Positions 5,533-35,651 of a stretch of DNA of 64,000 nt are shown here, in pieces. Made by a program: the position numbers and the translations under genes. The stretch is from Gemmatimonadales bacterium (lineage in GTDB: Bacteria; Gemmatimonadota; Gemmatimonadetes; Gemmatimonadales; GWC2-71-9): contig DATDFC010000102.1 in NCBI GenBank assembly GCA_036522815.1, positions 22,056 through 86,055 of the forward strand. The letters are read 5' to 3'. The notes beneath the pieces are model-generated. The model saw only the letters and a list, made by a program, of their open reading frames with translations. It was not told the DNA's origin and searched no databases. Each line of letters begins with the position of its first letter. Positions within the stretch are counted from its first letter, which is position 1.

Positions 5533-7707
5533 ATGGCACGCACGACGAGTTGGACCTTGTTGGCCACGACGGCCGCAACACTGATGGTTGCCGTCGCATG
5601 TAACGATTCGCAGAGTCCGAGGCCCCGAGCGTTGCTCGGTCTGCCGGACCTCGGCACGCTCGCCGTGACCGTCACCACCTCGGGCTCGAACACGCCGTCC
5701 GGCTACACGGTGATAGTGGATGGCTCCTCCAGCCAGTCGGTCGGTGCCAACGCCGTCGCCACGTTCCTGGGGCTCCCGGCGGGCGATCACACCGTGTTGC
5801 TGTCGGGCGTCCCCTCCAACTGCTCAGTCAGCGGAGCTAATCCGCGCACCGTCTCACTCATCGCCGGCCTGGTCGCGGCCACGACGTTCTCCGTCACCTG
5901 CACGGCGCCACCGCCGCCGCCCACCACCGGAGACCTGGCGGTCACCACCGCAACGAGCGGCTCGAACATTGACGCGGACGGCTACACCGTCACCGTCGAC
6001 GGTGGCGCGAGCCAGGCCATCAGCACGAACGGCAGCGTCACCTTCAGCGGGCTCTCGGCGGCGAGCCACACCGTGGTGCTGTCAGGCGTGGCGAGCAACT
6101 GCTCGGTGAGCGGCGGCACCTCCCGCACGGTGAGCGTGCCGGCAGGCGGCACCGCCACGACGTCGTTCGCCGTGAGCTGTACGGCTCCGCCGCCGCAGAC
6201 GGGGAACCTCACGGTCACCACCAGCACCAGCGGCTCGAACCTCGATCCGGACGGCTACACGGTCACCGTCGACGGTGGCGCGAGCCAGGCTATCAGCACG
6301 AACGGCAGCGTCACCTTCAGCGGGCTCTCGGCGGCGAGCCACACCGTGGTGTTGTCGGGCGTGGCGAGCAACTGCTCGGTGGGCGGCGGCACCTCCCGCA
6401 CAGTGAGCGTGCCGGCAGGCGGCACCGCCACGACGTCGTTCGCCGTGAGCTGTACGGCTCCGCCGCCGCAGACGGGCAACCTCACGGTGACCGCGAGCAC
6501 GTCGGGATCGAACCTCGATCCCGACGGCTACACCGCGACGGTGGACGGCGGTGCGAGCCAGAGCGTCGCGACCAACGGGAGCGTGACCTTCACGGGGCTC
6601 TCGGCGGGGAGTCACTCGGTGGCGCTGTCCGGAGTCGCCGCGAACTGCTCGGTGAGCGGGGCGAACCCGCAGACCGTCACCGTGCCCTCGGGCGGGACCG
6701 CGACGGCGACCTTCACCGTGAGCTGCGCCCCGACCGGCGGTGGTAACGGCACGCTGACGGTGACGACCAGCACCACGGGCTCGGACCTCGACCCCGACGG
6801 GTACACCGTCATTGTCGACGGCGGGGCGGCGAGCCAGCCGATTGCGACGAACGGCAGCGTCTCGTTCACCGGACCGGCGGGGGATCACACCGTGGCGCTG
6901 TCCGGCGTGGCGGCGAACTGCAGCGTGAGCGGGGCGAACCCGCGCACTGTCACCGTACCGTCCGGTGAGACCGTGTCCACGACCTTCAGCGTGACGTGCG
7001 CGGCGACCGGTGGAGGCACCGGCAGCGTGACGGTCACCACCAGCACGACGGGCTCGAACCTCGATCCTGACGGCTACACGGTCACGATCGACGGCTCGTT
7101 CAGCCAGCCGATCGCGACCAACGGCAGCGTGACCTTCACGGGTCCGTCGGGCGACCATTCGCTCGCGTTGTCGGGCGTGGCCTCGAACTGCACCGTCAGC
7201 GGGGCGAACCCCCGCACCGTCACCGTGCCGTCCGGCGGCACCACCACCACGACCTTCTCCGTGAGCTGCGCGGCAACCGGCGGTGGCGGCAGTGGTGAAG
7301 TCATCGGTCAGGGGCAGATCGGGAGCGGCTCGCCCACTCCGGGGAGCGATGCGACCACGTTCAACTTCGACATCCGGTCCGACCTCACGGGACGGTTCAC
7401 TGGGACCGACTGGGCCGACCTGCACGCCCCCAATCAGCCCGCCACTCTGACCACCGACCCGGTGGCCGATCCCGCCACGTCGTTCACGGCGTACCGCAAC
7501 AGCTCGAGCGCCTGCAGCGACCCGACCCGCGGCGTGGAGGTCGACGCCGTGGGTCGTGAGGATACCGGCAATCTCGTGGCCTATACCCTGACCGTGTGCG
7601 ACAACGGCCCGGCCGGGAGCGGCAGCGACTTCTTCCAGGTGTTCATTCCGTCGGAAGGGTTCGGCGTCTCCGGCGCCGTGACCAGCGGCGACGTCTCCAA
7701 GCGCTGA
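5533..7707 (+). CDS. tandem-repeat surface lipoprotein (six ~91-aa Ig-like repeats plus C-terminal domain)
   Basis: Signal peptide with lipobox (LMVAVAC). Six repeats of the type GNLTVTTSTSGSNLDPDGYTVTVDGG.SQ...NGSVTF.GL....H.V.LSGVA.NCSVSG...RTVTVP.GGT....F.V.C, each with two Cys. A unique ~135-aa C-terminal domain follows. Confidence 0.8.
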   Translation: MARTTSWTLLATTAATLMVAVACNDSQSPRPRALLGLPDLGTLAVTVTTSGSNTPSGYTVIVDGSSSQSVGANAVATFLGLPAGDHTVLLSGVPSNCSVSGANPRTVSLIAGLVAATTFSVTCTAPPPPPTTGDLAVTTATSGSNIDADGYTVTVDGGASQAISTNGSVTFSGLSAASHTVVLSGVASNCSVSGGTSRTVSVPAGGTATTSFAVSCTAPPPQTGNLTVTTSTSGSNLDPDGYTVTVDGGASQAISTNGSVTFSGLSAASHTVVLSGVASNCSVGGGTSRTVSVPAGGTATTSFAVSCTAPPPQTGNLTVTASTSGSNLDPDGYTATVDGGASQSVATNGSVTFTGLSAGSHSVALSGVAANCSVSGANPQTVTVPSGGTATATFTVSCAPTGGGNGTLTVTTSTTGSDLDPDGYTVIVDGGAASQPIATNGSVSFTGPAGDHTVALSGVAANCSVSGANPRTVTVPSGETVSTTFSVTCAATGGGTGSVTVTTSTTGSNLDPDGYTVTIDGSFSQPIATNGSVTFTGPSGDHSLALSGVASNCTVSGANPRTVTVPSGGTTTTTFSVSCAATGGGGSGEVIGQGQIGSGSPTPGSDATTFNFDIRSDLTGRFTGTDWADLHAPNQPATLTTDPVADPATSFTAYRNSSSACSDPTRGVEVDAVGREDTGNLVAYTLTVCDNGPAGSGSDFFQVFIPSEGFGVSGAVTSGDVSKR
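5650..7294 (+). repeat. in-frame tandem coding repeats, about 6 x 273 bp
   Basis: Repeat units start near 5650, 5929, 6202, 6475, 6748 and 7021. Units 2 and 3 (5929-6474) differ at only a handful of nucleotides over their last ~220 bp, which also produces twin antisense ORFs (5982-6227 and 6255-6500). Confidence 0.85.
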
Positions 7708-13912: not shown

Positions 13913-16900
13913 TCACGGCTTGTTCCCGCCGGTGACAATGTCTCTGAGCGGCGCCTTGCGCAGCTCGGCGCCGAACGCCGGCAGCTCGCGCTCCATGAAG
14001 CCGGCGAAGCGCACGGACGCGTCGGCCAGGCGCTGCGTGAACAGCTCGAACACCGCCTGCTGCTGCGCCGTGGGCGCGAAGTCGGCCCCGCTCTCGGAGA
14101 CGTCGGACTGCAGTGCCGCGAGCCGGCCGTAGAGCTGCATCGGGCCGCGGAACGCATCCTCGCGCGCGCCCGTCAGATGGACGTCGAACAGCACGCCCTC
14201 GACGGCGCCGGCGTGGCGGTCGAGCGAATCGGCGAGGCCGGCGAGCCGCTTGGCGCTCGAGTCACCGGTGAGGGCGGTGTCGCCCCGCAACTGACCGGTC
14301 AAATCCGCGAGCTGTTTCCGCACCCACTCGAGCCGGTTGATCATGCGCGCCACGCTGTCCTGCGCGCTGCGGATCGCGAGCGCCAGCCGGGTCTGCGCCA
14401 CGACGTCGGTGTCGCTCGCCGTCGTGTTCGGGTCCTTGAGCACCGTGAGCGTCTGCGTGAGCGTGGTCCGGGTGGCTGCGCTGTCCCCCACGGTGACCCG
14501 CACGGTGTAGCTGCCCGGCGGCACGAGCGGACCCCGCAGCGATAGGTCCAGGTCCCAGCTCACGAGGGGCCGGGTGCCGTCGGCGCCGACGCGCACCCAC
14601 GCCTTGCCGGGCGGTGGCGTCCGCAGCTTGGGTGTGGCGGGTGACGTGTAACGCAGGTTCCACCAGACACGATTCAACCCCGGCTTGCGCTCTCCCTCGA
14701 GCACCCGCACCGTGTCGCCGCCCGATCCGAGAATGACGATCTTGGCGGGACGCAGACGGTGCGCGCTGTCGGCCGCGGTCGCGGTGTCGGCGAGCCCCGC
14801 GGGCAGGTAGTAGGTCAGGCCCGCCCCGTCGGGTACGCTGTCCACCTGGACGGCGCTGTTGGGCGCGCTGATGATGCCCTGCTGCGCGCGGAAGCGATAC
14901 GCGGGGCGTGGTTTGAACATTATGGCCCCGCCCGCAAGGGCGGGGAAACCAGGGTCCTCCAGCGGCGAGATGTCGTCCAGGATCCAGATGCCTCGCCCGT
15001 AGGTCGAGACCACCAGGTCGTGGAAGTGCGGCTGCACCGTGATCCACGAGATCGGCGCGTGCGGCAGGTTGGTCTGAAGCGGGAGCCACCGAGCCCCGTC
15101 GTCCAACGTCACGTACACGCCGCTCTCGGTGCCCGCGAACAGCAGGCCCCGGCGCACGGGGTCTTCCGTCACCACGTGTACGAACGCCAGGGACGAGCGC
15201 GGCAGGCCGTCGGAGATCTTCTTCCAGCTCTTGCCGAAGTCCGTCGTCTTGAAGATGTAGGGATCGAGGTCGTCGAGCTCGTGCAGGTCGACCGAGAGGT
15301 ACGCCGTCCCGGCGTCGAAGTGCGACGGCTCGATGTTGGAGATCTTCCCCCAGGGCGGAAGCTTGGGGATTCCCCCGGTCACGTCATTCCAGGTCGCGCC
15401 GCCATCGCGGGTGACGTGCACCACGCCGTCGTTCGAGCCCGCCCAGATCACGCCGGCGCCCCCCTGCGCCGGTGACTCGGCGAGCGCGAACAGCGTGGCG
15501 CCGTCGAACGTCATGAGGTTGTCGGTGGTAACGCCCCCCGAGCTGCGCTGGTGGGTCGTGTCGTTCCGCGTGAGGTCCGGGCTCACCACCTTCCAGCTCG
15601 CGCCGCCGTCGGTGGTGAGGTGCACGTACTGGCTGCCCGCGAACACCTTCCGATGGTCGTGCGGCGAGATCATGATCGGGAACGTCCAGTTCCAGCGATA
15701 CTTCAAGTCGGCGGGCCGCCAGCCGTAGCCCGCCTCGGGCCAGACGCGCACGTTGCGCGCGTGGTTGCTGCGCGCGTCGTACACCTCGAGGCCACCGTCG
15801 TAGCACCCCGACCAGACCGTGACGTTGTCCACCGTGTCGGGGATCCCGAAGCCGCTTTCGCAGCCGCCGATGTGTCGCCAGTCGCCCTCGCTGATCCCGT
15901 CCCCCAGGCCGCGGCTCGGCATGCGATACGACGTCCCGTCCTGGCGGTTCCCGTACACGTTGTACGGGACGCGCGTGTCGGCATAGACGTGGTACATCTG
16001 GGCGATGGGGAGCACCACGCGCTGGAACGATCGCCCGCGGTTGAGCGTGATGCTGGCGCCGCCGTCGTGCGCCACCATGAAGCGGTCGGGGTTCACGGGA
16101 TCGATCCAGATGTCGTGGTTGTCGCCTCCTCCCTGATAGCCCGAGCGGGCGAGGGTGCGGCCCCCGTCGCGCGACATGCTGAACCGCACCGACACGAAGT
16201 ACAACCGCTCCTCGTCGTCCGGCGCCACCGCGAAGCGCACGTAGTAGGGCGCGCGCTCGGCCATGGAGTGGTCCCGGCTCACGACGTGCCAGGTCACGCC
16301 GCGGTCGTCGCTGCGGTACAGCGTCGGGTCCTGATCCTCGATCAGCGCGTACACCGTGTTGGGATTGGACGGCGCGACCGCCACCGCGATCTTACCGACC
16401 ACGTGCTGGGCCTCCGGGAGCCCGTGTCCCGCCAGCCGCTTCCAGGTCACTCCCCCGTCGCGCGACACCCACAGCCCGCTCCCGGGCCCGCCGCTCTGCA
16501 GGTGCCAGGTCTTCACTTCGAATTGCCACATACCGGCGAATAGCGTATTCGGGTCTCCCGGATCGATCGCCAGGTCGGAGCACCCCGTGTTCGTGTCGAC
16601 GAACAGCACGCGGGTCCACGTCTTGCCGCCGTCGGTGGTGCGGTACACGCCGCGGTCCTGGGCCGGCCCGTACGCCCGTCCCAGCGCGCACACCAGCACC
16701 ACATCGGGGTTCGCGGGATGGATCACGATGCGCGCGATGCGTCCCGTGCCGTCGAGCCCCTGGTGTTGCCAGCTGCGGCCCGCGTCGGTCGAGCGGTACA
16801 CGCCGTTACCGAGCGCGGTCGTCGAGCGGATGAAGAAGGTCTCGCCGGTGCCGGCCCAGAGGACGTTGTGGGCCGACGGCGCCAGCGCCAGCGCGCCGAT

Positions 16901-29399: not shown

Positions 29400-29897
29400 G
29401 TGGTCTGGCTGCGCTTGGTGCATATCGTCGCAGGCGTCGTCTGGGTCGGCTCGGCCGTGTTCGCCGCCCTGTTCGTCCTTCCCACCGCCCGGGCCTTGGG
29501 CCCCGAGGGCAGCCGCTTCGTGGCGCGCCTGATGCCGCGCTCGGGCCCCGTGCTCGGCAGCGCCATGCTGTTGACGATCGTCTCGGGATTCATCATGTAC
29601 GGGCGGCTCTCCGCCGGATTCAACCGGGGCTGGGTGACGTCGCGCGTGGGGCTCGCGCTCGGCGCCGGGGCGGTCGCCGCCCTCCTCGCGGTGATCGTGG
29701 GTGTGGCCGTGAACGCCCCCGCCGGCGCCAAGATGGCCAGGCTCCGCAAGGGCCTCGAACCGCAGGGCGGCACCCCGACCGCGGCGCAGGCCGCAGAGCT
29801 CGCCACCCTGCAGGCACGCGTGGAGCGGGGAGCCCAGCTCGTGGCCCTGCTGCTCCTGACGGCGGCCGGGGCGATGGCGGTCGCCCGGTACCTGTGA
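29400..29897 (+). CDS. membrane protein (four TM helices), unknown function
   Basis: GTG at 29400 preceded by GGAGGTG. Hydrophobic 165-aa ORF divergent from the TetR gene. Confidence 0.65.
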   Translation: MVWLRLVHIVAGVVWVGSAVFAALFVLPTARALGPEGSRFVARLMPRSGPVLGSAMLLTIVSGFIMYGRLSAGFNRGWVTSRVGLALGAGAVAALLAVIVGVAVNAPAGAKMARLRKGLEPQGGTPTAAQAAELATLQARVERGAQLVALLLLTAAGAMAVARYL

Positions 29898-30194
29898 GCG
29901 CTCTCGCCGGGAAGGTGGTGCTCGTCACCGGCAGCTCGCGGGGCATTGGTGCCGCGATCGCGACACTGTTCGCGCAGCACGGCGCCAGGGTGGCGCTGCA
30001 CGGCCGGGATGAGGAGGCGCTCTCGGCCGTGCGGGCCGCCATCGGGCGCGGCGCGGCCGCGAGATGTCGCGCGCGCGGCCGTATTCCTCGCGTCGGACGA
30101 GGCGGGGTGTCCCCGTGATGGGCCCCATGGGATTCGAATCAACGATCATAGCCTGGCGACCGGATTTGTCGTCGGGCTGCGCTCCCCCCGCTAA
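29894..30194 (+). pseudogene. short-chain dehydrogenase/reductase remnant (internal deletion plus frameshift)
   Basis: The GTG at 29894 (GTGA-coupled to the previous gene) opens a normal SDR N-terminus (LAGKVVLVTGSSRGIGAAIATLFAQHGARVALHGRDEEAL). Near 30050-30062 the sequence jumps to a typical SDR C-terminus in another frame (DVARAAVFLASDEAG). The central ~170 aa, including the catalytic YxxxK region, is missing. Confidence 0.6.
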
Positions 30195-30213: not shown

Positions 30214-30295
30214 TTGAGTCCGGACACTGCCACGTTGCCCGGCTATTGCTCGCGTCTCCGTAGCTTGGGTCGCGTGACATGTGCGACACCAACGC
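30214..30295 (+). promoter_or_regulatory. conserved upstream element, copy A (phased TTGnnnn heptamers plus TAGCTT)
   Basis: 53/62 identity (hand count) to 31039-31100. TTGAGTC at 30214, TTGCCCG at 30235, TTGCTCG at 30246, an 8-bp spacer, then TAGCTT at 30261-30266. It begins 123 nt upstream of the ATG at 30337. Confidence 0.45.
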
Positions 30296-30336
30296 AAGCC
30301 ATGGCAGGTGAAGGAAACAGGGAGAAAGGCGGAGCA

Positions 30337-31035
30337 ATGACCTCGACCATCACAGCGGCTCTCCTGGGTCTGATGTCCGGGTCCGCTGAAAGCGCATTGC
30401 CCCGCCTCGAGCTCGCGCCGGCTGCTCGTGCGGTCCTCGCCGCGTTCGCGGCCAGCCCCACGGAGCGCCTCGCCTGCCTGCTCGGCTCCGTTGACGGCCC
30501 GACGGTTCGGGTCAAGTCCGTGTCGGAGACTGACGACAGCGGCGCGACGGCCACGCGCGTGGTCGCCCGCGCCCCATGCCCGCCTGGAGCGGTGGGGCGA
30601 GTCCACTCCCACCCGGGCGCCGAGCGGTGCTGGTACTGGTTCCCGGGCACCCAAGTCGAGACCTCGGACGCCGTCTCGTTCCGCCGCGGCGGCTACCCAG
30701 TCGACGCCATCGTGTGCGGTCCGACGCTGGTCTATGTCACCCGCGCCGGCGGCGCCGAGGCCCAGAGCCTCGCGTTAGTGGGCCGCAACGTGCCGGTCCT
30801 GCTGGTGGCTGCCGCGGTCGCGTTCGCGACCGCCCAAGACTCCACCATGCGCAGGCCGTGCGGAGGCCAAATCGTGGCGTCGGACGAGCGCGAGCCCGAC
30901 GGGAGCTTCCTCGTGCGCTGGGCGCGCGCGATTCGCTCGGCTGCTCTGAAACCGCGGATCTCCCAGTCCGCGCGACTCACGTTGCAGTATCGGCGTCCGC
31001 TGGGCGCGCAGCTCGGGATTACGCTCCACCTCTAG
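30337..31035 (+). CDS. hypothetical membrane-anchored protein with a JAB/MPN-like E...HSHP...D pattern
   Basis: ATG at 30337 preceded by GGAGAAAGGCGGAG; GC-rich third positions. It has a signal-like N-terminus, the segments TERLACLLGSVDG and GRVHSHPG...ETSD, a TM helix (VPVLLVAAAVAFATA) and an Arg-rich tail. The JAB assignment is tentative. Confidence 0.55.
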   Translation: MTSTITAALLGLMSGSAESALPRLELAPAARAVLAAFAASPTERLACLLGSVDGPTVRVKSVSETDDSGATATRVVARAPCPPGAVGRVHSHPGAERCWYWFPGTQVETSDAVSFRRGGYPVDAIVCGPTLVYVTRAGGAEAQSLALVGRNVPVLLVAAAVAFATAQDSTMRRPCGGQIVASDEREPDGSFLVRWARAIRSAALKPRISQSARLTLQYRRPLGAQLGITLHL

Positions 31036-31038
31036 CCA

Positions 31039-31122
31039 TTGACTCCGGACATCTCCGCGTTGCCCGGCCATTGCTCGTGTCTCCCTACCTTGGGTCGCGT
31101 TCACATGAACGCCACACCGACG
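31039..31122 (+). promoter_or_regulatory. conserved upstream element, copy B (phased TTGnnnn heptamers plus TACCTT)
   Basis: TTGACTC at 31039, TTGCCCG at 31060, TTGCTCG at 31071, an 8-bp spacer, then TACCTT at 31086-31091. It begins 137 nt upstream of the ATG at 31176. Confidence 0.45.
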
Positions 31123-31175: not shown

Positions 31176-31748
31176 ATGCTTGGATTGATCGCAACACTCA
31201 CTCGGGGTCGCGTGCTTCGCGCCCTGGCGACCGCAGGCATCATCGGCGCTGCAGCGTGTCAGGATGCCAGCAGAGCCGTCGGGCCCACCAAAGACGTCGG
31301 GGAGGCCAACGCCCTTTTCTTGGCCGCACCCCAACCCGACCTGATCGTGAAGAGTTTTACCTACGCACCAATCGATCCGAATTATCCCGGCTACGCGTGG
31401 TCGACGGACGTCGAGCTTACAGCAGTCGTCAGCAATGTCGGCCTCGCGACGGCGGGCGCCTCGATCCTCAGTTTCAGCGGCTGGGCTCCCGCGACGTTGC
31501 AGCCGCTCTCTCCGGTGCTGTCGCCATCCTCACCCTGGCTCGCCTGCACCATGCCGCTGCGGGACGGGCAGTTTTGGGTGCCGGCGCTTGCCCCGGGTCA
31601 GGACTACATCGTGCACTGGACTGTCCATCTCCAAGACGGGTCTTACTACCAGATCACGGCGACCGCCAATTCGCCCCAGTGCACCTCAGAATGGGACCTG
31701 TCGAACAACTCGGCGCTCGTCCACTTCCAGGTAATCATCATCAATTGA
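31176..31748 (+). CDS. CARDB-domain lipoprotein
   Basis: AGGAGG lies 6 nt upstream of the ATG. Lipobox IIGAAAC. CARDB-like pattern PDLIVKSF...VVSNVG...ending in EWDLSNNSA. GC is visibly lower than in neighbouring genes. Confidence 0.7.
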   Translation: MLGLIATLTRGRVLRALATAGIIGAAACQDASRAVGPTKDVGEANALFLAAPQPDLIVKSFTYAPIDPNYPGYAWSTDVELTAVVSNVGLATAGASILSFSGWAPATLQPLSPVLSPSSPWLACTMPLRDGQFWVPALAPGQDYIVHWTVHLQDGSYYQITATANSPQCTSEWDLSNNSALVHFQVIIIN

Positions 31749-31788: not shown

Positions 31789-31826
31789 GCAGCGCCGCGC
31801 TCCCGCGCGGCGCTGCACTGCGTTTT
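31789..31826 (+). terminator. terminator hairpin between convergent genes
   Basis: Perfect 12-bp stem GCAGCGCCGCGC (31789-31800) / GCGCGGCGCTGC (31805-31816) with loop TCCC, followed by ACTGCGTTTTCT. Confidence 0.6.
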
Positions 31827-33962
31827 CTAGGCGGGCAGTCGTGCCCGCAGCTCGGCGAGGGCGCGACGGCCCTGCTCGTCACCCGGCTCGAGCACCCGCT
31901 CGGCCGCGGCGAGCGCCCGGCGCGCAGCGCGCGGAGCGGATTCGGCGAGCGCCGCGTGCACCGCTGCCACTGCCTCGGCGAACGCGGCCGCGGGCGGTCC
32001 CGTCCGGGCCAGGAGCTCCGCTCGCAACAGGCGCGATTCCAGGTCGGGGCGCGACGCCAGCGCTGCCGCAGCGCGGGCCCGCAGTGCGCGTCGCTCGCCG
32101 GCCAGGAGGCGCTCCCCGCTCACGACTTCGGCGATGAGCGGCGCGGCGAAGCGATAGCGCTCCCCGTCGAAGGTGAGCAACCCGTGGCGCTCCAGGACGG
32201 CGAGCAACTGCTCGATGCGCTCGGGTGCGACGCCGGTGAGCGCGGCGATGAGCTCCGGGTCCACGGCGAGCGCGCCGATGCTCGCCGCGCGCAGCACCTG
32301 CAGGGTCGCCGCGTCCAGCTCCGCGACCCGGGCCAAGACTGCCTGGCGCGCCAGGCTCGGGACCGACATCGGGAGCGGTTCCTCGATGGTGACGCCCGGA
32401 CGGGGCCAGGTGAGCGCCTCCGCGCGCAGGATCGCGGTCTTCTCGAGCCCTTGCAACATGGTGACGATCAGAAACGGGTTCCCGCTCGTCTCGAAGAAGA
32501 CACGACGAGCCAGGCGATCGAGATCCGCCTGGTTCACGCACCAGGCGCTGCCGTGCAGTACGAGCTCCCGCGTCTCGGCCGCGGAGAGGGGCTCGAGCTG
32601 CACCGTCTGGCCCGGCACTCTTCCCGCGCGTCCGACGTCGCTCCGCAGGCGAACCAGCGCGCGCGAGGGCTCCTGGAATGTCGCGCGCGCGCTCAGCACC
32701 AGCAGCACCGGCAGCCCGGCGAGCTGCGGCATGGCGCCACCGAGCGCCTCGATGCTGGCGCCGTCCGCGCAATGCGCCTCGTCCACCGCCAGCGCCACGG
32801 GTTGCTCCTCAGCGAGCGCCCGCAGCAGCGACGCCAGGGCCGCCGCCACCTCGGCGTGGTCGGCGGGTGCGCGCGATGCGACGCCTGGGAACGCTTCGGG
32901 CGCCAGGGTCGCGAGCGCGGCGAGCGCGTAGGGGTCGGCGGCGGCGCTGCCTGGCGCGCGCATCAGGCCCGCGCGCAACAGAGTCCGGAGCGTGCTCCAG
33001 GGGGCGTCGCGGTCGCTCTCGAGCGGCGTGGCGACCGCCGCCACCGCGCCCTGGAGCGCGAAGCGGTCCACGCACTCGGTCAGAAGCCGGGTCTTTCCCG
33101 TCCCCGGGTCACCGGTGATCAAAACGGTCTGCGGGCCCCGTTGTAACGTCTCCGCGACCAGCGTGAACGCCTCCCGATGCGCCCGTGCCTGGCCCACCAG
33201 CGGCGGCCTCGTTTCCCCGGGCGGCCGCGTGTGCCGCCGCCAGCGCTGCCCCCGGATGCGGTCGGCGAGCGCCGCCAGCTCGCGGCCCGGTTGCTCGCCC
33301 AGGGCCGCCAAGCGGGTGGCGAACTCGTGAAACGCCGCGAGCGCCCCGGCGGCGTCCCCGCTCAGCGCGCAGGCGCGCATCAATAGCTGCACGGCTGGCT
33401 CTCCATACGGCTGCAGGGCGAGTGCGCGACGGGCCGACGCGCTCGCGTCGGACTCGCGCGCTGTGGCCAGTGCCTCCTCACCGGCCGCGACCAGCGCGGC
33501 GGCCGCCCGCGCGCGATACCGGTCCCGCTCCTGTGCTGCCCACTCCTCGAACGCGGGCGCGCCCTCGAGGGCGAAGCCCTCGAGAAAATCGCCCTCCACG
33601 AGACGGGCGGCATCGGCAGGGCTGCGGTCCAGCAGCGCGTCGAACCGCAGCGCATCCACCTCGAGTGCGTCCTCGCGCAGCAGGATCGAGTCGCTATCGG
33701 ACGCGAGGCGCGCCTCACCGACGTGCGCCCGCAGCCGCCGGATCGCCTCGTTGAGCGAGTGGCGCGCCCGGGCGTCGTCGGTCTCCGGCCAGAGCACTCC
33801 CACCAGATGCGCCCGGGTCCGTCTGCGCTTAGGAGAAAGGGCGAGGTAGACGAGCAACGCGAGATGCTTGCGACGCAACACCTCGGGCGGCGCCGGGCCG
33901 CCGGCGAGGCGCGCGGTCGGCACCCCGAAGCAATGAAGCTCCAGGGGAGGCAGTCCGGACAT
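31827..33962 (-). CDS. AfsR-like SARP-family regulator (wHTH + BTAD + P-loop NTPase + helical repeats)
   Basis: N-terminal OmpR-type winged helix (LELHCFGVP...RRKHLALLVYLAL), a BTAD region (DALRFDALL...QPYGEPAVQLLMRACALSGDAAGAL), Walker A GDPGTGKT, and a long Ala/Leu-rich C-terminal part. Confidence 0.85.
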   Translation of the reverse strand: MSGLPPLELHCFGVPTARLAGGPAPPEVLRRKHLALLVYLALSPKRRRTRAHLVGVLWPETDDARARHSLNEAIRRLRAHVGEARLASDSDSILLREDALEVDALRFDALLDRSPADAARLVEGDFLEGFALEGAPAFEEWAAQERDRYRARAAAALVAAGEEALATARESDASASARRALALQPYGEPAVQLLMRACALSGDAAGALAAFHEFATRLAALGEQPGRELAALADRIRGQRWRRHTRPPGETRPPLVGQARAHREAFTLVAETLQRGPQTVLITGDPGTGKTRLLTECVDRFALQGAVAAVATPLESDRDAPWSTLRTLLRAGLMRAPGSAAADPYALAALATLAPEAFPGVASRAPADHAEVAAALASLLRALAEEQPVALAVDEAHCADGASIEALGGAMPQLAGLPVLLVLSARATFQEPSRALVRLRSDVGRAGRVPGQTVQLEPLSAAETRELVLHGSAWCVNQADLDRLARRVFFETSGNPFLIVTMLQGLEKTAILRAEALTWPRPGVTIEEPLPMSVPSLARQAVLARVAELDAATLQVLRAASIGALAVDPELIAALTGVAPERIEQLLAVLERHGLLTFDGERYRFAAPLIAEVVSGERLLAGERRALRARAAAALASRPDLESRLLRAELLARTGPPAAAFAEAVAAVHAALAESAPRAARRALAAAERVLEPGDEQGRRALAELRARLPA

Positions 33963-33983: not shown

Positions 33984-34044
33984 GGCGTCTGGGCGCCTCG
34001 CTACAGCCACCATACCTCTAGACGCCCAGACGCCCGGACGCGCA
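33984..34044. promoter_or_regulatory. inverted repeat and tandem octamers in the divergent promoter region
   Basis: GGCGTCTGGGCG (33984-33995) and its exact reverse complement CGCCCAGACGCC (34023-34034). Three tandem octamers GACGCCCA GACGCCCG GACGCGCA lie at 34021-34044. Confidence 0.35.
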
Positions 34045-34170
34045 GGAACCCAATCTAACGGATCACCTCTCGCGCCCGAAGCGCTCGGCCCGCCCTTTGA
34101 ACCCGGGTCTGCTCGCAAGCATCCTACACGCAGGCCACGCTGTGTCGTGAAACCCCCGTCAGGAGGGACA

Positions 34171-34847: not shown

Positions 34848-35651
34848 GTGGCTGACCTGCGAACGGCGCTGCAGGACGCGCTGGGCCCGACCTACCGGGT
34901 CGAGCGCGAGGTGCGTCCGGTAGGCACCTGCCGCATGTTCGTCGCGCTCGAAGGAGCGAGCGGACCGGCTCTCCTCGTGAAAGTCCTGCCGGGGGAGCTG
35001 TCGCTCGCGTTGGACACGGCGCTGCTCGAGCGCGAGCTCCAGATGCTGGCGGAGCGTCTGAGCGCGCCGCCCCTCGTGCCTCCGCGCGGCTCCGGACGCG
35101 CCGGCGCGTTGGTATATCACTCGCGCGCGTTCGTGGAAGGCACCACGCTGCGCGCCTGGCTCACCCGCAACGGCGAGCTGCCGCTGCGCCGGGCGGTCGA
35201 GATTCTGCGCGACGTGCTCAGCGCGCTGGCCCACGCGCACGCCGCCCACATCGCCCACGGCGACCTGAAGCCCGAAAACGTCCTCCTCACCGAAGGCCAC
35301 ACGCTGGTCGCCGATACCGGGATCGTGGGAGCGGTGGAGCGTTCTCTGCCGCGCGGCGCGCCCGGGGCGGTGACCGGGGCGCTGTGCGCCACCACCTATG
35401 TGGCGCCGGAGCGGCGCGCGCCCGGAGGGAAGAACGGCGCGGCGGCGGCCACGCCGGCCGACGACATGTTCGCCGTGGGCGTGCTGGTGCACGAGATGTT
35501 GACGGGTCGCCCGCCCACGCCGGAATCGGAGCCACTCGAGGAGGTCCGCTCGGTGCCCCCGTGGCTCGCCGAGCTGGAGCGGCGCTGCCTCGCGCCCGAC
35601 CCGGCGAGCCGCTGGCCGGATGGCGGCGCGGCGCTCGCCGCAATGAGCTGA
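34848..35651 (+). CDS. stand-alone Ser/Thr protein-kinase-like protein (non-RD, degenerate Gly loop)
   Basis: Catalytic loop HGDLKPENVLL, DTG in place of DFG, YVAPER, and DMFAVGVLVHEMLTGRPP. The Gly-rich loop is replaced by VRPVGTCRMF. The GTG at 34848 is chosen as the start because the family N-terminus usually begins there; the ORF is open from 34656. Confidence 0.6.
   Translation: MADLRTALQDALGPTYRVEREVRPVGTCRMFVALEGASGPALLVKVLPGELSLALDTALLERELQMLAERLSAPPLVPPRGSGRAGALVYHSRAFVEGTTLRAWLTRNGELPLRRAVEILRDVLSALAHAHAAHIAHGDLKPENVLLTEGHTLVADTGIVGAVERSLPRGAPGAVTGALCATTYVAPERRAPGGKNGAAAATPADDMFAVGVLVHEMLTGRPPTPESEPLEEVRSVPPWLAELERRCLAPDPASRWPDGGAALAAMS

Follow-up and report, generated by a model that had tools for sequence, protein, structure and literature searches.

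The stretch of DNA analysed here (64,000 nt in all, hereafter the window) covers positions 22,056-86,055 of contig DATDFC010000102.1 in assembly GCA_036522815.1 of a Gemmatimonadales bacterium, a soil member of the Gemmatimonadota whose relatives are metagenome-assembled genomes (MAGs) of Gemmatimonadetes/Gemmatimonadales. It holds two copies of a 62-nt element, each in front of one of two consecutive genes, and beside these, on the opposite strand, a gene for a large SARP-type regulator that we propose as the activator of both. The features are listed below; E-values of the elements come from a profile hidden Markov model (HMM) of the element family, and negative numbers are predicted positions relative to the transcription start.

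30214-30275, plus strand: predicted promoter element, copy 1 (62 nt; repeat family D17; family HMM E=9e-25), preceding the JAB-like gene
30214-30220, plus strand: heptamer R1 of copy 1, TTGAGTC, predicted -59..-53; family consensus TTGACTC
30235-30241, plus strand: heptamer R2 of copy 1, TTGCCCG, predicted -38..-32; 21 nt after R1, overlapping the would-be -35 (20-bp spacer)
30246-30252, plus strand: heptamer R3 of copy 1, TTGCTCG, predicted -27..-21; 11 nt after R2 and 8 nt before the -10
30261-30266, plus strand: predicted -10 hexamer of copy 1, TAGCTT; TA and last T invariant in all copies
30267-30275, plus strand: GGGTCGCGT of copy 1, predicted discriminator and start-site region and most conserved block; start predicted from the -10 at about 30273-30274
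30337-31035, plus strand: target gene 1, encoding a 232-residue JAB-like protein (weak match to Prok-JAB PF14464, E=1.3e-3, below the curated cut-off; HSHPG motif)
31039-31100, plus strand: predicted promoter element, copy 2 (D17; family HMM E=1.2e-26), preceding the CARDB lipoprotein gene
31039-31045, 31060-31066 and 31071-31077, plus strand: heptamers R1 (TTGACTC), R2 (TTGCCCG) and R3 (TTGCTCG) of copy 2
31086-31091 and 31092-31100, plus strand: predicted -10 hexamer TACCTT and GGGTCGCGT of copy 2; predicted start about 31098-31099
31176-31748, plus strand: target gene 2, encoding a 190-residue CARDB-like lipoprotein (PF07705 E=4.5e-4, below the cut-off; lipobox GAAAC)
31827-33962, minus strand: proposed activator, 711 residues, with a SARP domain (winged helix-turn-helix, wHTH, plus BTAD), a STAND/AAA_16 NTPase and a helical C-terminal region

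A first-pass annotation had aligned the two elements without gaps at 53 of 62 positions, and the repeat finder recovered the same pair as a two-copy direct repeat (62 nt, 85% identity); a gapped BLAST match between the copies reaches about 84 nt at 81%. Its TTG blocks, 21-nt and 11-nt steps, 8-nt spacer and TAGCTT/TACCTT hexamers all proved to have the right coordinates when read off the sequence, as did the distances of 123 and 137 nt from the element starts to the ATG codons at 30337 and 31176. In fixed register, identity between the copies is 75-90% within the core and 25-50% in each 20-nt flanking block on both sides. The common layout is TTGACTC-N14-TTGCYCG-N4-TTGCTCG-N8-TAnnTT-GGGTCGCGT, with the final block invariant between the two copies of the window, and copy 2 begins 4 nt past the stop codon of gene 1. 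Searched with up to three mismatches, the core 25-mer matched the window at the two elements only (0.00 matches expected), and the same two places gave all occurrences of TTG-N8-TTG-N12-TAnnnT (2 found vs 0.01 expected) and of TAnnTTGGnTC (2 vs 0.16). Repeat finder, mismatch and pattern searches returned no third copy within the 64-kb window, and a chance origin of the repeat is excluded.

Related genomes were searched with a strict pattern built from the columns invariant in nine copies, which fixes 25 positions. These nine copies were independent of the pattern, being the two of the window and seven in four loci reached via the SARP protein (L004, L005, L006 and L008, the last also retrieved independently of the strict pattern). 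The strict pattern was found in 7 stretches of GTDB genomes and 22 of JGI metagenome contigs, with 31 unique copies in total; the exact core 25-mer had no match in GTDB genomes. All 31 copies are in sense to a downstream gene, whose start codon follows the end of the core after 19-75 nt. The downstream gene always encodes a TolB/PD40-like beta-propeller lipoprotein (~312 residues), the 232-residue JAB-like protein or a CARDB lipoprotein, and the order is element and PD40 gene, element and JAB gene, element and CARDB gene, all in one direction, followed by the SARP gene in the other. Module content varies: the window has JAB and CARDB, AG28 and L008 just PD40, and AG20 the full set of three. 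Orthologues of copy 1 precede genes for the 232-residue JAB-like protein in five other loci (L004, L005, L023, L036 and L040), and those of copy 2 precede CARDB genes. In each of the 18 loci that extend far enough, the SARP gene adjoins the module, and there is no counter-example. The R2-R3 step (11 nt) and the gap from R3 to TAnnTT (8 nt) are the same in all copies, and the R1-R2 step is 21 nt, or 22 nt in L039 and L042; in L028 and L040 the half made up of R1 and N14 has been replaced, with R2, R3 and the -10 kept.

A more divergent copy with a fourth target was found by profile search in a sister clade (L025, L034, L037 and L041), where it is located on the other flank of the SARP gene and is directed away from that gene. 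This copy precedes a gene for a 350-residue metzincin-like lipoprotein with the metalloprotease motif HELGHGFSLHH in the first three of these loci and only a 25-codon open reading frame (ORF) in L041, so that three of the four target families overall, this protease included, are lipoproteins.

Within the nine pattern-independent copies, mean information peaks in the heptamers (R1 1.82, R2 1.82 and R3 1.68 bits), the -10 (1.72) and the discriminator GGGTCGCGT (1.94) and dips in the N14, 4-nt and N8 spacers (1.26, 1.38 and 1.45 bits, respectively), with 0.86 bits in the upstream and 1.44 in the downstream flank. At greater distance, between AG20 and L008, L025 or L030, identity over the last 41 nt of the core, beginning at R2, is 71-78% vs 51-56% at four-fold degenerate sites of the downstream gene, a comparison in which some copies had come from the 25-position pattern.

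The product of 31827-33962 matches the Pfam BTAD family at residues 114-237, directly after the wHTH, with 46.7 bits (cut-off 22.1), and AAA_16 at residues 256-421 with 55.9 bits, including a Walker A motif GDPGTGKT and a Walker B motif LAVDEAH. The wHTH itself scored 24.4 bits with Trans_reg_C, slightly below the cut-off of 26.2, and PF00486 is present in many homologues. Residues 430-711 matched no Pfam family, TPR included, at E<=0.01; TOMM_kin_cyc gave a weak collinear match to residues 145-681. Searching the PDB by phmmer with the full protein or with residues 1-149 returned nothing useful, and a profile of the N-terminal 250 residues matched EmbR (E=3e-14) and AfsR (E~1e-6), collinear with AfsR residues 26-349 and with EmbR. 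An AlphaFold2 model of residues 1-250 has a mean predicted local distance difference test score of 95 and the strand-helix-helix-helix-hairpin layout of a wHTH. Its best Foldseek match is AfsR in the transcription initiation complex 8k60 (TM-score 0.73 over ~253 columns), with EmbR at 0.72; the top six are all AfsR (8k60, 8hvr) or EmbR (2fez, 2ff4), at TM-scores of 0.71-0.73 and E-values of 5e-9 to 1e-7, followed by generic TPR proteins at E>8e-3. Given these profile and fold matches to AfsR and EmbR, the protein is a genuine SARP-domain protein of the large NTPase-bearing kind. Its gene has counterparts of 88-91% identity in the MAGs AG20, AG21 and AG28 and identical ones on three metagenome contigs (L001-L003). 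Homologues already carry the labels 'AfsR/SARP family' or 'BTAD domain-containing' in the source databases, and the presence of a SARP protein in the phylum is therefore not new.

A profile of the SARP domain found relatives encoded in 544 stretches of GTDB species representatives, and nearly all of the best 80, which are 42-67% identical to the query, are from Gemmatimonadota. This best-80 set supplied 78 new loci (879 kb in total), in which the spacing between two TTG triplets and a TAnnnT hexamer was tabulated over 90 combinations (gap ranges 4-13 and 8-16 nt). TTG-N8-TTG-N12-TAnnnT occurred 32 times and each of the remaining 89 combinations 0-5 times, mostly 0 or 1, so that the 11-nt period is the sole enriched spacing. 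Density of the pattern per 100 kb is 12.6 within 1.5 kb of a SARP gene and 0.59 farther away, a 21-fold difference, with 1.26 inside the SARP gene. These 32 sites are not phylogenetically independent (L063, L074, L076, L078 and L083 form one clade) and represent well over a dozen lineages. In 24 of them a third TTG, which was no part of the search pattern, stands exactly 21 nt upstream of R2. The matrix of the distant sites has an R1 consensus of TTGACT (21-29 of 32 per position) and an R2 consensus of TTG[A/T]C[C/T]G, and directly after the -10 comes G at -6 in 24/32 and G at -5 in 20/32. Taken together, the arrangement TTGnnnn-N14-TTGnnnn-N4-TTGnnnn-N8-TAnnnT is specific to the neighbourhood of SARP-type genes across the Gemmatimonadota.

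A first scan found an ORF within 24-117 nt after 27 of the 32 distant sites, and a looser one found an ORF of at least 40 residues after 28, 25 of which matched a lipobox pattern; with the two doubtful matches set aside (lipobox at residue 33 in L072, at residue 1 in L116), ~23 clear cases remain. Many distant targets are small (60-100 residues), and in L063 a separate element precedes each of two small lipoprotein genes that lie in tandem and are convergent with the SARP gene. The short flanks of two paralogues with 52-55% identity (L009 and L010) contained no sites. The letters of the heptamer follow the SARP clade, with TTGCTCG in the window and TTGACTG, TTGTCTG, TTGGCCG, TTGATCT or TTGACCC elsewhere. 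In four loci the recognition helix reads ARRSLNEA rather than ARHSLNEA, and all four have TTGGCCG or TTGGCCC at R2. L088, with TTGGCCG and the His form of the helix, is an exception to this correlation, which may rest on a single evolutionary event.

Several side observations concern the promoters and their modules. In AG21 (L005 14147-14278), a 137-nt remnant of the terminator hairpin and SARP 3' end lies just after the PD40 gene, with 76% identity to window positions 31789-31925, and L040 256-5190 carries tandem SARP modules, one (SARP-A) with CARDB and JAB and the other (SARP-B) with PD40. Both findings point to an ancestor with two paralogous modules and to later loss of one regulator; the SARP that remains would presumably now serve the orphaned promoter. 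Targets with unrelated mature parts (in L004, L006, L042, L063, L074, L076 and others) have similar N-termini, roughly MS.K..L..GA..LAAC(D/S)S(P/T)T.PN, and the unit copied in front of new genes may comprise promoter, leader and lipoprotein signal peptide. The predicted -10 (window 30261-30268 and 31086-31093, and the distant-site matrix) usually reads TA(G/C)(C/G)TT and then GG. This TAnnTTGG resembles the Bacteroidota -7 motif TAnnTTTG, and the Gemmatimonadota belong to the same FCB superphylum; the likeness may reflect a property of the Gemmatimonadota housekeeping sigma factor, and this form of the -10 may be a trait of the phylum. Finally, L090 (VAWK01000076.1), a 2.6-kb contig with one of the best 80 SARP relatives, binned as 'Actinobacteria bacterium AC_4' in the same soil study as the AG MAGs, has the ARRSLNEA helix and TTGGCCC-type heptamers, like some Gemmatimonadota loci, and is probably a mis-binned contig.

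Characterized SARP systems offer a close structural precedent for the element. In the promoters that SARPs act on, direct repeats recur at 11 or 22 bp, and 8 bp separate the 3' repeat from the -10; the 22-bp afs box lies at -40..-19, centred at -29.5, its upstream repeat overlaps a poor -35 at -38..-33, and in the AfsR complex sigma region 4 is placed on the SARP dimer and not on the DNA (PMC10936776). Three repeats occur at some SARP sites (PMC10972967). With TAGCTT placed at -12..-7, the R2-R3 pair of the window is likewise centred at -29.5, a centre that is independent of the heptamer register, whereas the count of 8 bp from R3 to the -10 depends on that register and on a predicted -10. The window system further resembles AfsR and its target afsS in its domain order, with a STAND/NOD NTPase that carries Walker A and B motifs after the SARP domain, in its best fold match (the AfsR complex), in two repeats with an 11-bp period and a 20-bp gap to the -10 without a usable -35 (PMC10936776), and, in the window's lineage, in a nearby Ser/Thr kinase gene, as AfsK is for AfsR. 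It differs in coming from Gemmatimonadota rather than Actinobacteria, in ~26% sequence identity, in length (711 vs 993 residues, with no TPR by Pfam), in the heptamer (TTGCTCG/TTGACnn) and a third repeat 21 bp upstream, and in its predicted targets, neighbouring envelope and lipoprotein genes in place of afsS or antibiotic pathways. EmbR of Mycobacterium tuberculosis shares the SARP fold and is regulated by a Ser/Thr kinase, but it is actinobacterial and has an FHA domain where the window protein has the NTPase.

Small pathway-specific SARPs read heptamers of the TCGAG type. Of this group, ActII-ORF4, DnrI and RedD resemble the window system in heptamers 11 or 22 bp apart, 8 bp to the -10 and sometimes triple, and in a regulator inside the cluster that it controls, with a site of its own at each target promoter (PMC10936776, PMC10972967); unlike the window protein, they consist of the SARP domain alone and act on biosynthetic operons. 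PimR, SanG and PolR are, like the window protein, large SARPs with a C-terminal NTPase region and bind heptamer doublets or triplets with 4-bp spacers, but they are actinobacterial, their targets are regulators of antibiotic clusters, and the PimR operator lies clear of the -35 (PMC5930380). The first-pass annotation was right that the heptamers depart from TCGAGnn; this is not unusual for SARPs, since PimR, SanG and PolR use CGGCAAG (PMC5930380), and the new heptamer thus falls within the variation of the family. According to a 2024 review, SARPs are exclusive to actinobacteria (PMC10972967), a distribution that the window SARP does not fit; the point concerns where SARPs have been described and is no structural criterion. 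A literature search for Gemmatimonadota promoters, or for SARPs in the phylum, gave nothing relevant.

From the computed DNA anatomy, gene linkage and protein fold, we consider it likely that each 62-bp element is a promoter dependent on the adjacent SARP-type activator; binding, activation and start site are predictions drawn from these. The annotation had already read the locus in this way, as an activator-dependent promoter with phased heptamers in SARP geometry beside a wHTH-BTAD-ATPase gene, and conservation, placement, SARP linkage, recurrence, fold and the match to the afsS promoter geometry all support it. By analogy with AfsR, two SARP protomers would sit side by side on R2 and R3 (-38..-21, centre -29.5) and replace the -35, sigma region 4 would dock on these protomers rather than on DNA, and a third protomer, or another factor, could occupy R1 at -59..-53, two helical turns upstream. 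The housekeeping holoenzyme would then read TAnnTT and the GG(G) discriminator and start ~7 nt downstream, near 30273 and 31098, making this a SARP-dependent promoter of a class-II-like type. The NTPase and helical C-terminal part of the regulator would probably gate its activity by nucleotide binding and oligomerisation, to which the nearby Ser/Thr kinase may contribute in the window's lineage. Because each gene carries its own copy of the element, the one to four genes of a module would be switched on together, mostly lipoproteins (TolB-like propeller, CARDB and metzincin-like protease) plus the JAB-like protein.

Some observations weigh against SARP dependence or limit its support. The -10 is itself an assignment by prediction, and with it all promoter coordinates. 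Between the window and AG20 or AG21 the whole 62-nt core is 82-85% identical and four-fold sites are 83-86%, so this comparison of close orthologues is uninformative and constraint becomes clear at deeper divergence only. The MAGs with the strict pattern contain no further occurrence of it, a figure that is a lower bound on copies elsewhere because the MAGs are incomplete. Across clades, conservation is higher in R1 (TTGACT) than in R2 and R3, contrary to the idea that each SARP has its own code, and R1 could be a high-affinity anchor site or be bound by a shared factor. Lastly, the geometry of 7-bp repeats with 4-bp spacers does not by itself identify a SARP, since OmpR/PhoB response regulators use the same one.

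Pho boxes of the OmpR/PhoB type stand in for the -35 of sigma-70 promoters; they consist of 7-bp direct repeats spaced by 4 bp and are bound by a winged-helix domain, and the phased TTG heptamers could accordingly be read by such a regulator or by another winged-helix protein, with the SARP gene merely co-inherited or itself a target. The conservation of R1 across clades with differing SARPs would suit this explanation, as would a histidine kinase gene a few kb away in the window's lineage and a receiver-domain gene upstream of the SARP gene in L008. We regard it as unlikely nonetheless: the kinase and receiver genes are lineage-specific and no other regulator, response regulators included, is consistently linked, whereas the SARP gene adjoins every informative locus, sites concentrate around SARP genes as described above, and heptamer letters shift along with SARP clade and recognition helix. 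The window regulator itself has no receiver domain and carries BTAD and an NTPase instead.

More improbable still is an ordinary constitutive housekeeping promoter that was copied with 5' regions in a local duplication and in which the TTG phasing is incidental. The two copies do share descent, as their 85% identity and a leader partly common to JAB-type and PD40-type copies indicate, and at shallow divergence the whole core is no better kept than synonymous sites. Against this, a -35 at 16-18 nt is lacking, the remainder of the 64-kb window is free of the motif, and the spacing rule recurs with other letters, essentially at one of 90 combinations, beside SARP paralogues of 42-67% identity, where common descent of the DNA is undetectable. 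A role of the element at the RNA level (leader or riboswitch) or as a mobile-element or recombination site (the end of a miniature inverted-repeat transposable element, or an attC-like cassette boundary) is very improbable: strain-variable gene content between the repeats (PD40 only, JAB and CARDB, or all three), tRNA genes flanking the module in relatives and the start of copy 2 so close behind a stop codon would fit such a site, but there is no Rfam match or excess folding, nearly every difference alters the amino acid when read in the one open frame of the core, repeat search and folds show no inverted-repeat partner or hairpin in the core, orientation is constantly sense with no copies within genes or at random places, and no integrase appears among the gene calls.

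Other identities of the element were tried and rejected. As coding sequence it would use the single frame open through the core (in copy 1 in frame with 30337), in which nearly all 9 differences are nonsynonymous, and orthologues of the first gene all begin at the same ATG. As an RNA element or riboswitch it has no Rfam match at gathering thresholds, its folding z-scores relative to shuffled sequences run from -0.93 to +1.11, and the core folds worse than shuffled sequence. A promoter scan found no canonical sigma-70 pair of -35 and -10 at 16-18 bp in either element, the TTGCCC of R2 being 20 bp and the TTGCTC of R3 9 bp from the -10. No GG-N10-GC of a sigma-54 promoter was seen by eye, and the regulator is a STAND NTPase and not an enhancer-binding AAA+ protein. 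For the element as a whole, a general housekeeping motif of the phylum is ruled out by the confinement of TAnnTTGGnTC and of the TTG pattern to the two elements in 64 kb. A dispersed or mobile repeat is ruled out by the constant sense orientation and the placement of every copy upstream of a gene; the annotation had named a dispersed repeat indifferent to gene starts among the outcomes that would overturn its proposal. A defence system found no support either, as PADLOC yielded generic kinase matches only.

The annotation's third, looser site did not survive comparison with the family, and is listed here with two further features of the surroundings.

31789-31816, no strand assigned: GC-rich hairpin (terminator scan: 12-pair stem, 11 of the pairs G-C, then a T run)
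34097-34130, plus strand: looser site TTGAACC-N5-CTGCTCG-N9-TACACG, rejected as a family member
34848-35651, plus strand: Ser/Thr kinase, 267 residues (Pfam Pkinase 6e-22), two genes from the SARP gene

The letters at 34097-34130 are present as written, but the phasing is 12 nt and not 11, the spacer 9 nt and not 8, TACACG has no T at -7, and the family HMM does not detect the site even at E<=100 with filters off; we therefore do not count it as a family copy. In the closest relatives this position holds a tRNA-His gene and unrelated genes. A genuine copy on that side of the SARP gene does exist in the sister clade, before a different gene.

The SARP gene had been described as immediately downstream of the two targets. 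It does adjoin target gene 2, but on the minus strand, convergent with it and separated from it by the hairpin at 31789-31816, which likely serves as a bidirectional terminator between the two genes. Target gene 2 has a strong AGGAGG ribosome-binding site. In relatives the CARDB protein has two domains and ~302 residues, vs 190 in the window (~360 nt difference), and the site of the difference is window 31316-31327 vs L004 12618-12977. Two independent assemblies, L001 and L003 (ENA k141_16924 and a k127 soil contig), both end at window position 31254 inside the CARDB gene, and the difference is probably a strain polymorphism that breaks assembly graphs. The Ser/Thr kinase at 34848-35651 is a possible AfsK-like partner; its gene is absent beside the SARP gene in AG20, AG21 and AG28 and confined to the window's lineage.

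Just upstream of copy 1, at 29897-30118, lies a truncated short-chain dehydrogenase (SDR) gene with an intact Rossmann N-terminus (GKVVLVTGSSRGIGAAI), a frame that breaks after ~50 codons and a C-terminal SDR segment (...AAVFLASDEAG-like) in another frame, which suggests an internal deletion; gene callers list it as a 74-residue adh_short fragment. A tRNA-His gene stands directly upstream of the SARP gene in AG20, AG21, AG28 and L036 (L004 9864-9938, L005 9864-9938, L006 9887-9961) and a tRNA-Trp gene at the far end of the module in AG20, AG28 and L036. The window contains no tRNA gene and has a 12-nt tRNA-His remnant, GCTACAGCCACC, at 34000-34011; the module has the look of a small islet, bounded by two tRNA genes and rearranged in the window's lineage. 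In L004, a 19-nt copy of the tRNA-Trp 3' end (AGGCCCGGCAGGAATCGAA, minus strand) recurs ~950 nt past the tRNA (~16349-16367 and 15389-15407), which looks like an att-type duplication flanking a small insertion with an SDR-like gene. Unrelated to the element, the region 5650-7290 consists of about six tandem coding repeats of 273 nt (91 residues; 64-92% identity; families D1-D8) and probably encodes a repetitive Ig-like surface protein.

To our knowledge, every characterised SARP binding site and structure is from Streptomyces or Mycobacterium. What is new here is a defined operator and promoter architecture and a local regulon, both predicted from sequence, for SARP-type regulators outside the Actinobacteria, with a TTG-based heptamer, mostly lipoprotein targets and recurrence across the phylum as its novel features. 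Beyond the window, we lean, with modest assurance, towards the view that SARP-STAND activators of the Gemmatimonadota make up a large family so far undescribed (relatives are encoded in at least 544 stretches of GTDB species representatives), and that each activator would switch on one to four adjacent lipoprotein or envelope genes via a three-heptamer promoter (TTGACnn at -59, -38 and -27, then TAnnTT-GG).

For a barely studied soil phylum, sequence alone yields a complete and testable predicted regulator-operator pair. Besides the 62-bp element itself, it supplies a heptamer code (TTGCTCG, or in general form TTGACnn) and a start site, both predicted, together with dozens of natural variants whose recognition helix changes along with the heptamer letters. 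Such a pair opens to experiment SARP-type sigma adaptation with a non-actinobacterial polymerase, the reading of DNA by SARP wHTH domains and the role of signal-sensing STAND regulators in the Gemmatimonadota cell envelope, and it gives annotators a simple rule for locating regulated promoters in Gemmatimonadota genomes. If the proposed family is real, SARP 'sigma adaptation' would not be an actinobacterial speciality tied to antibiotic production but an older, portable wiring of a signal-sensing NTPase to local envelope genes, in which the promoter, possibly together with the signal-peptide region, would be a cassette set before unrelated genes.

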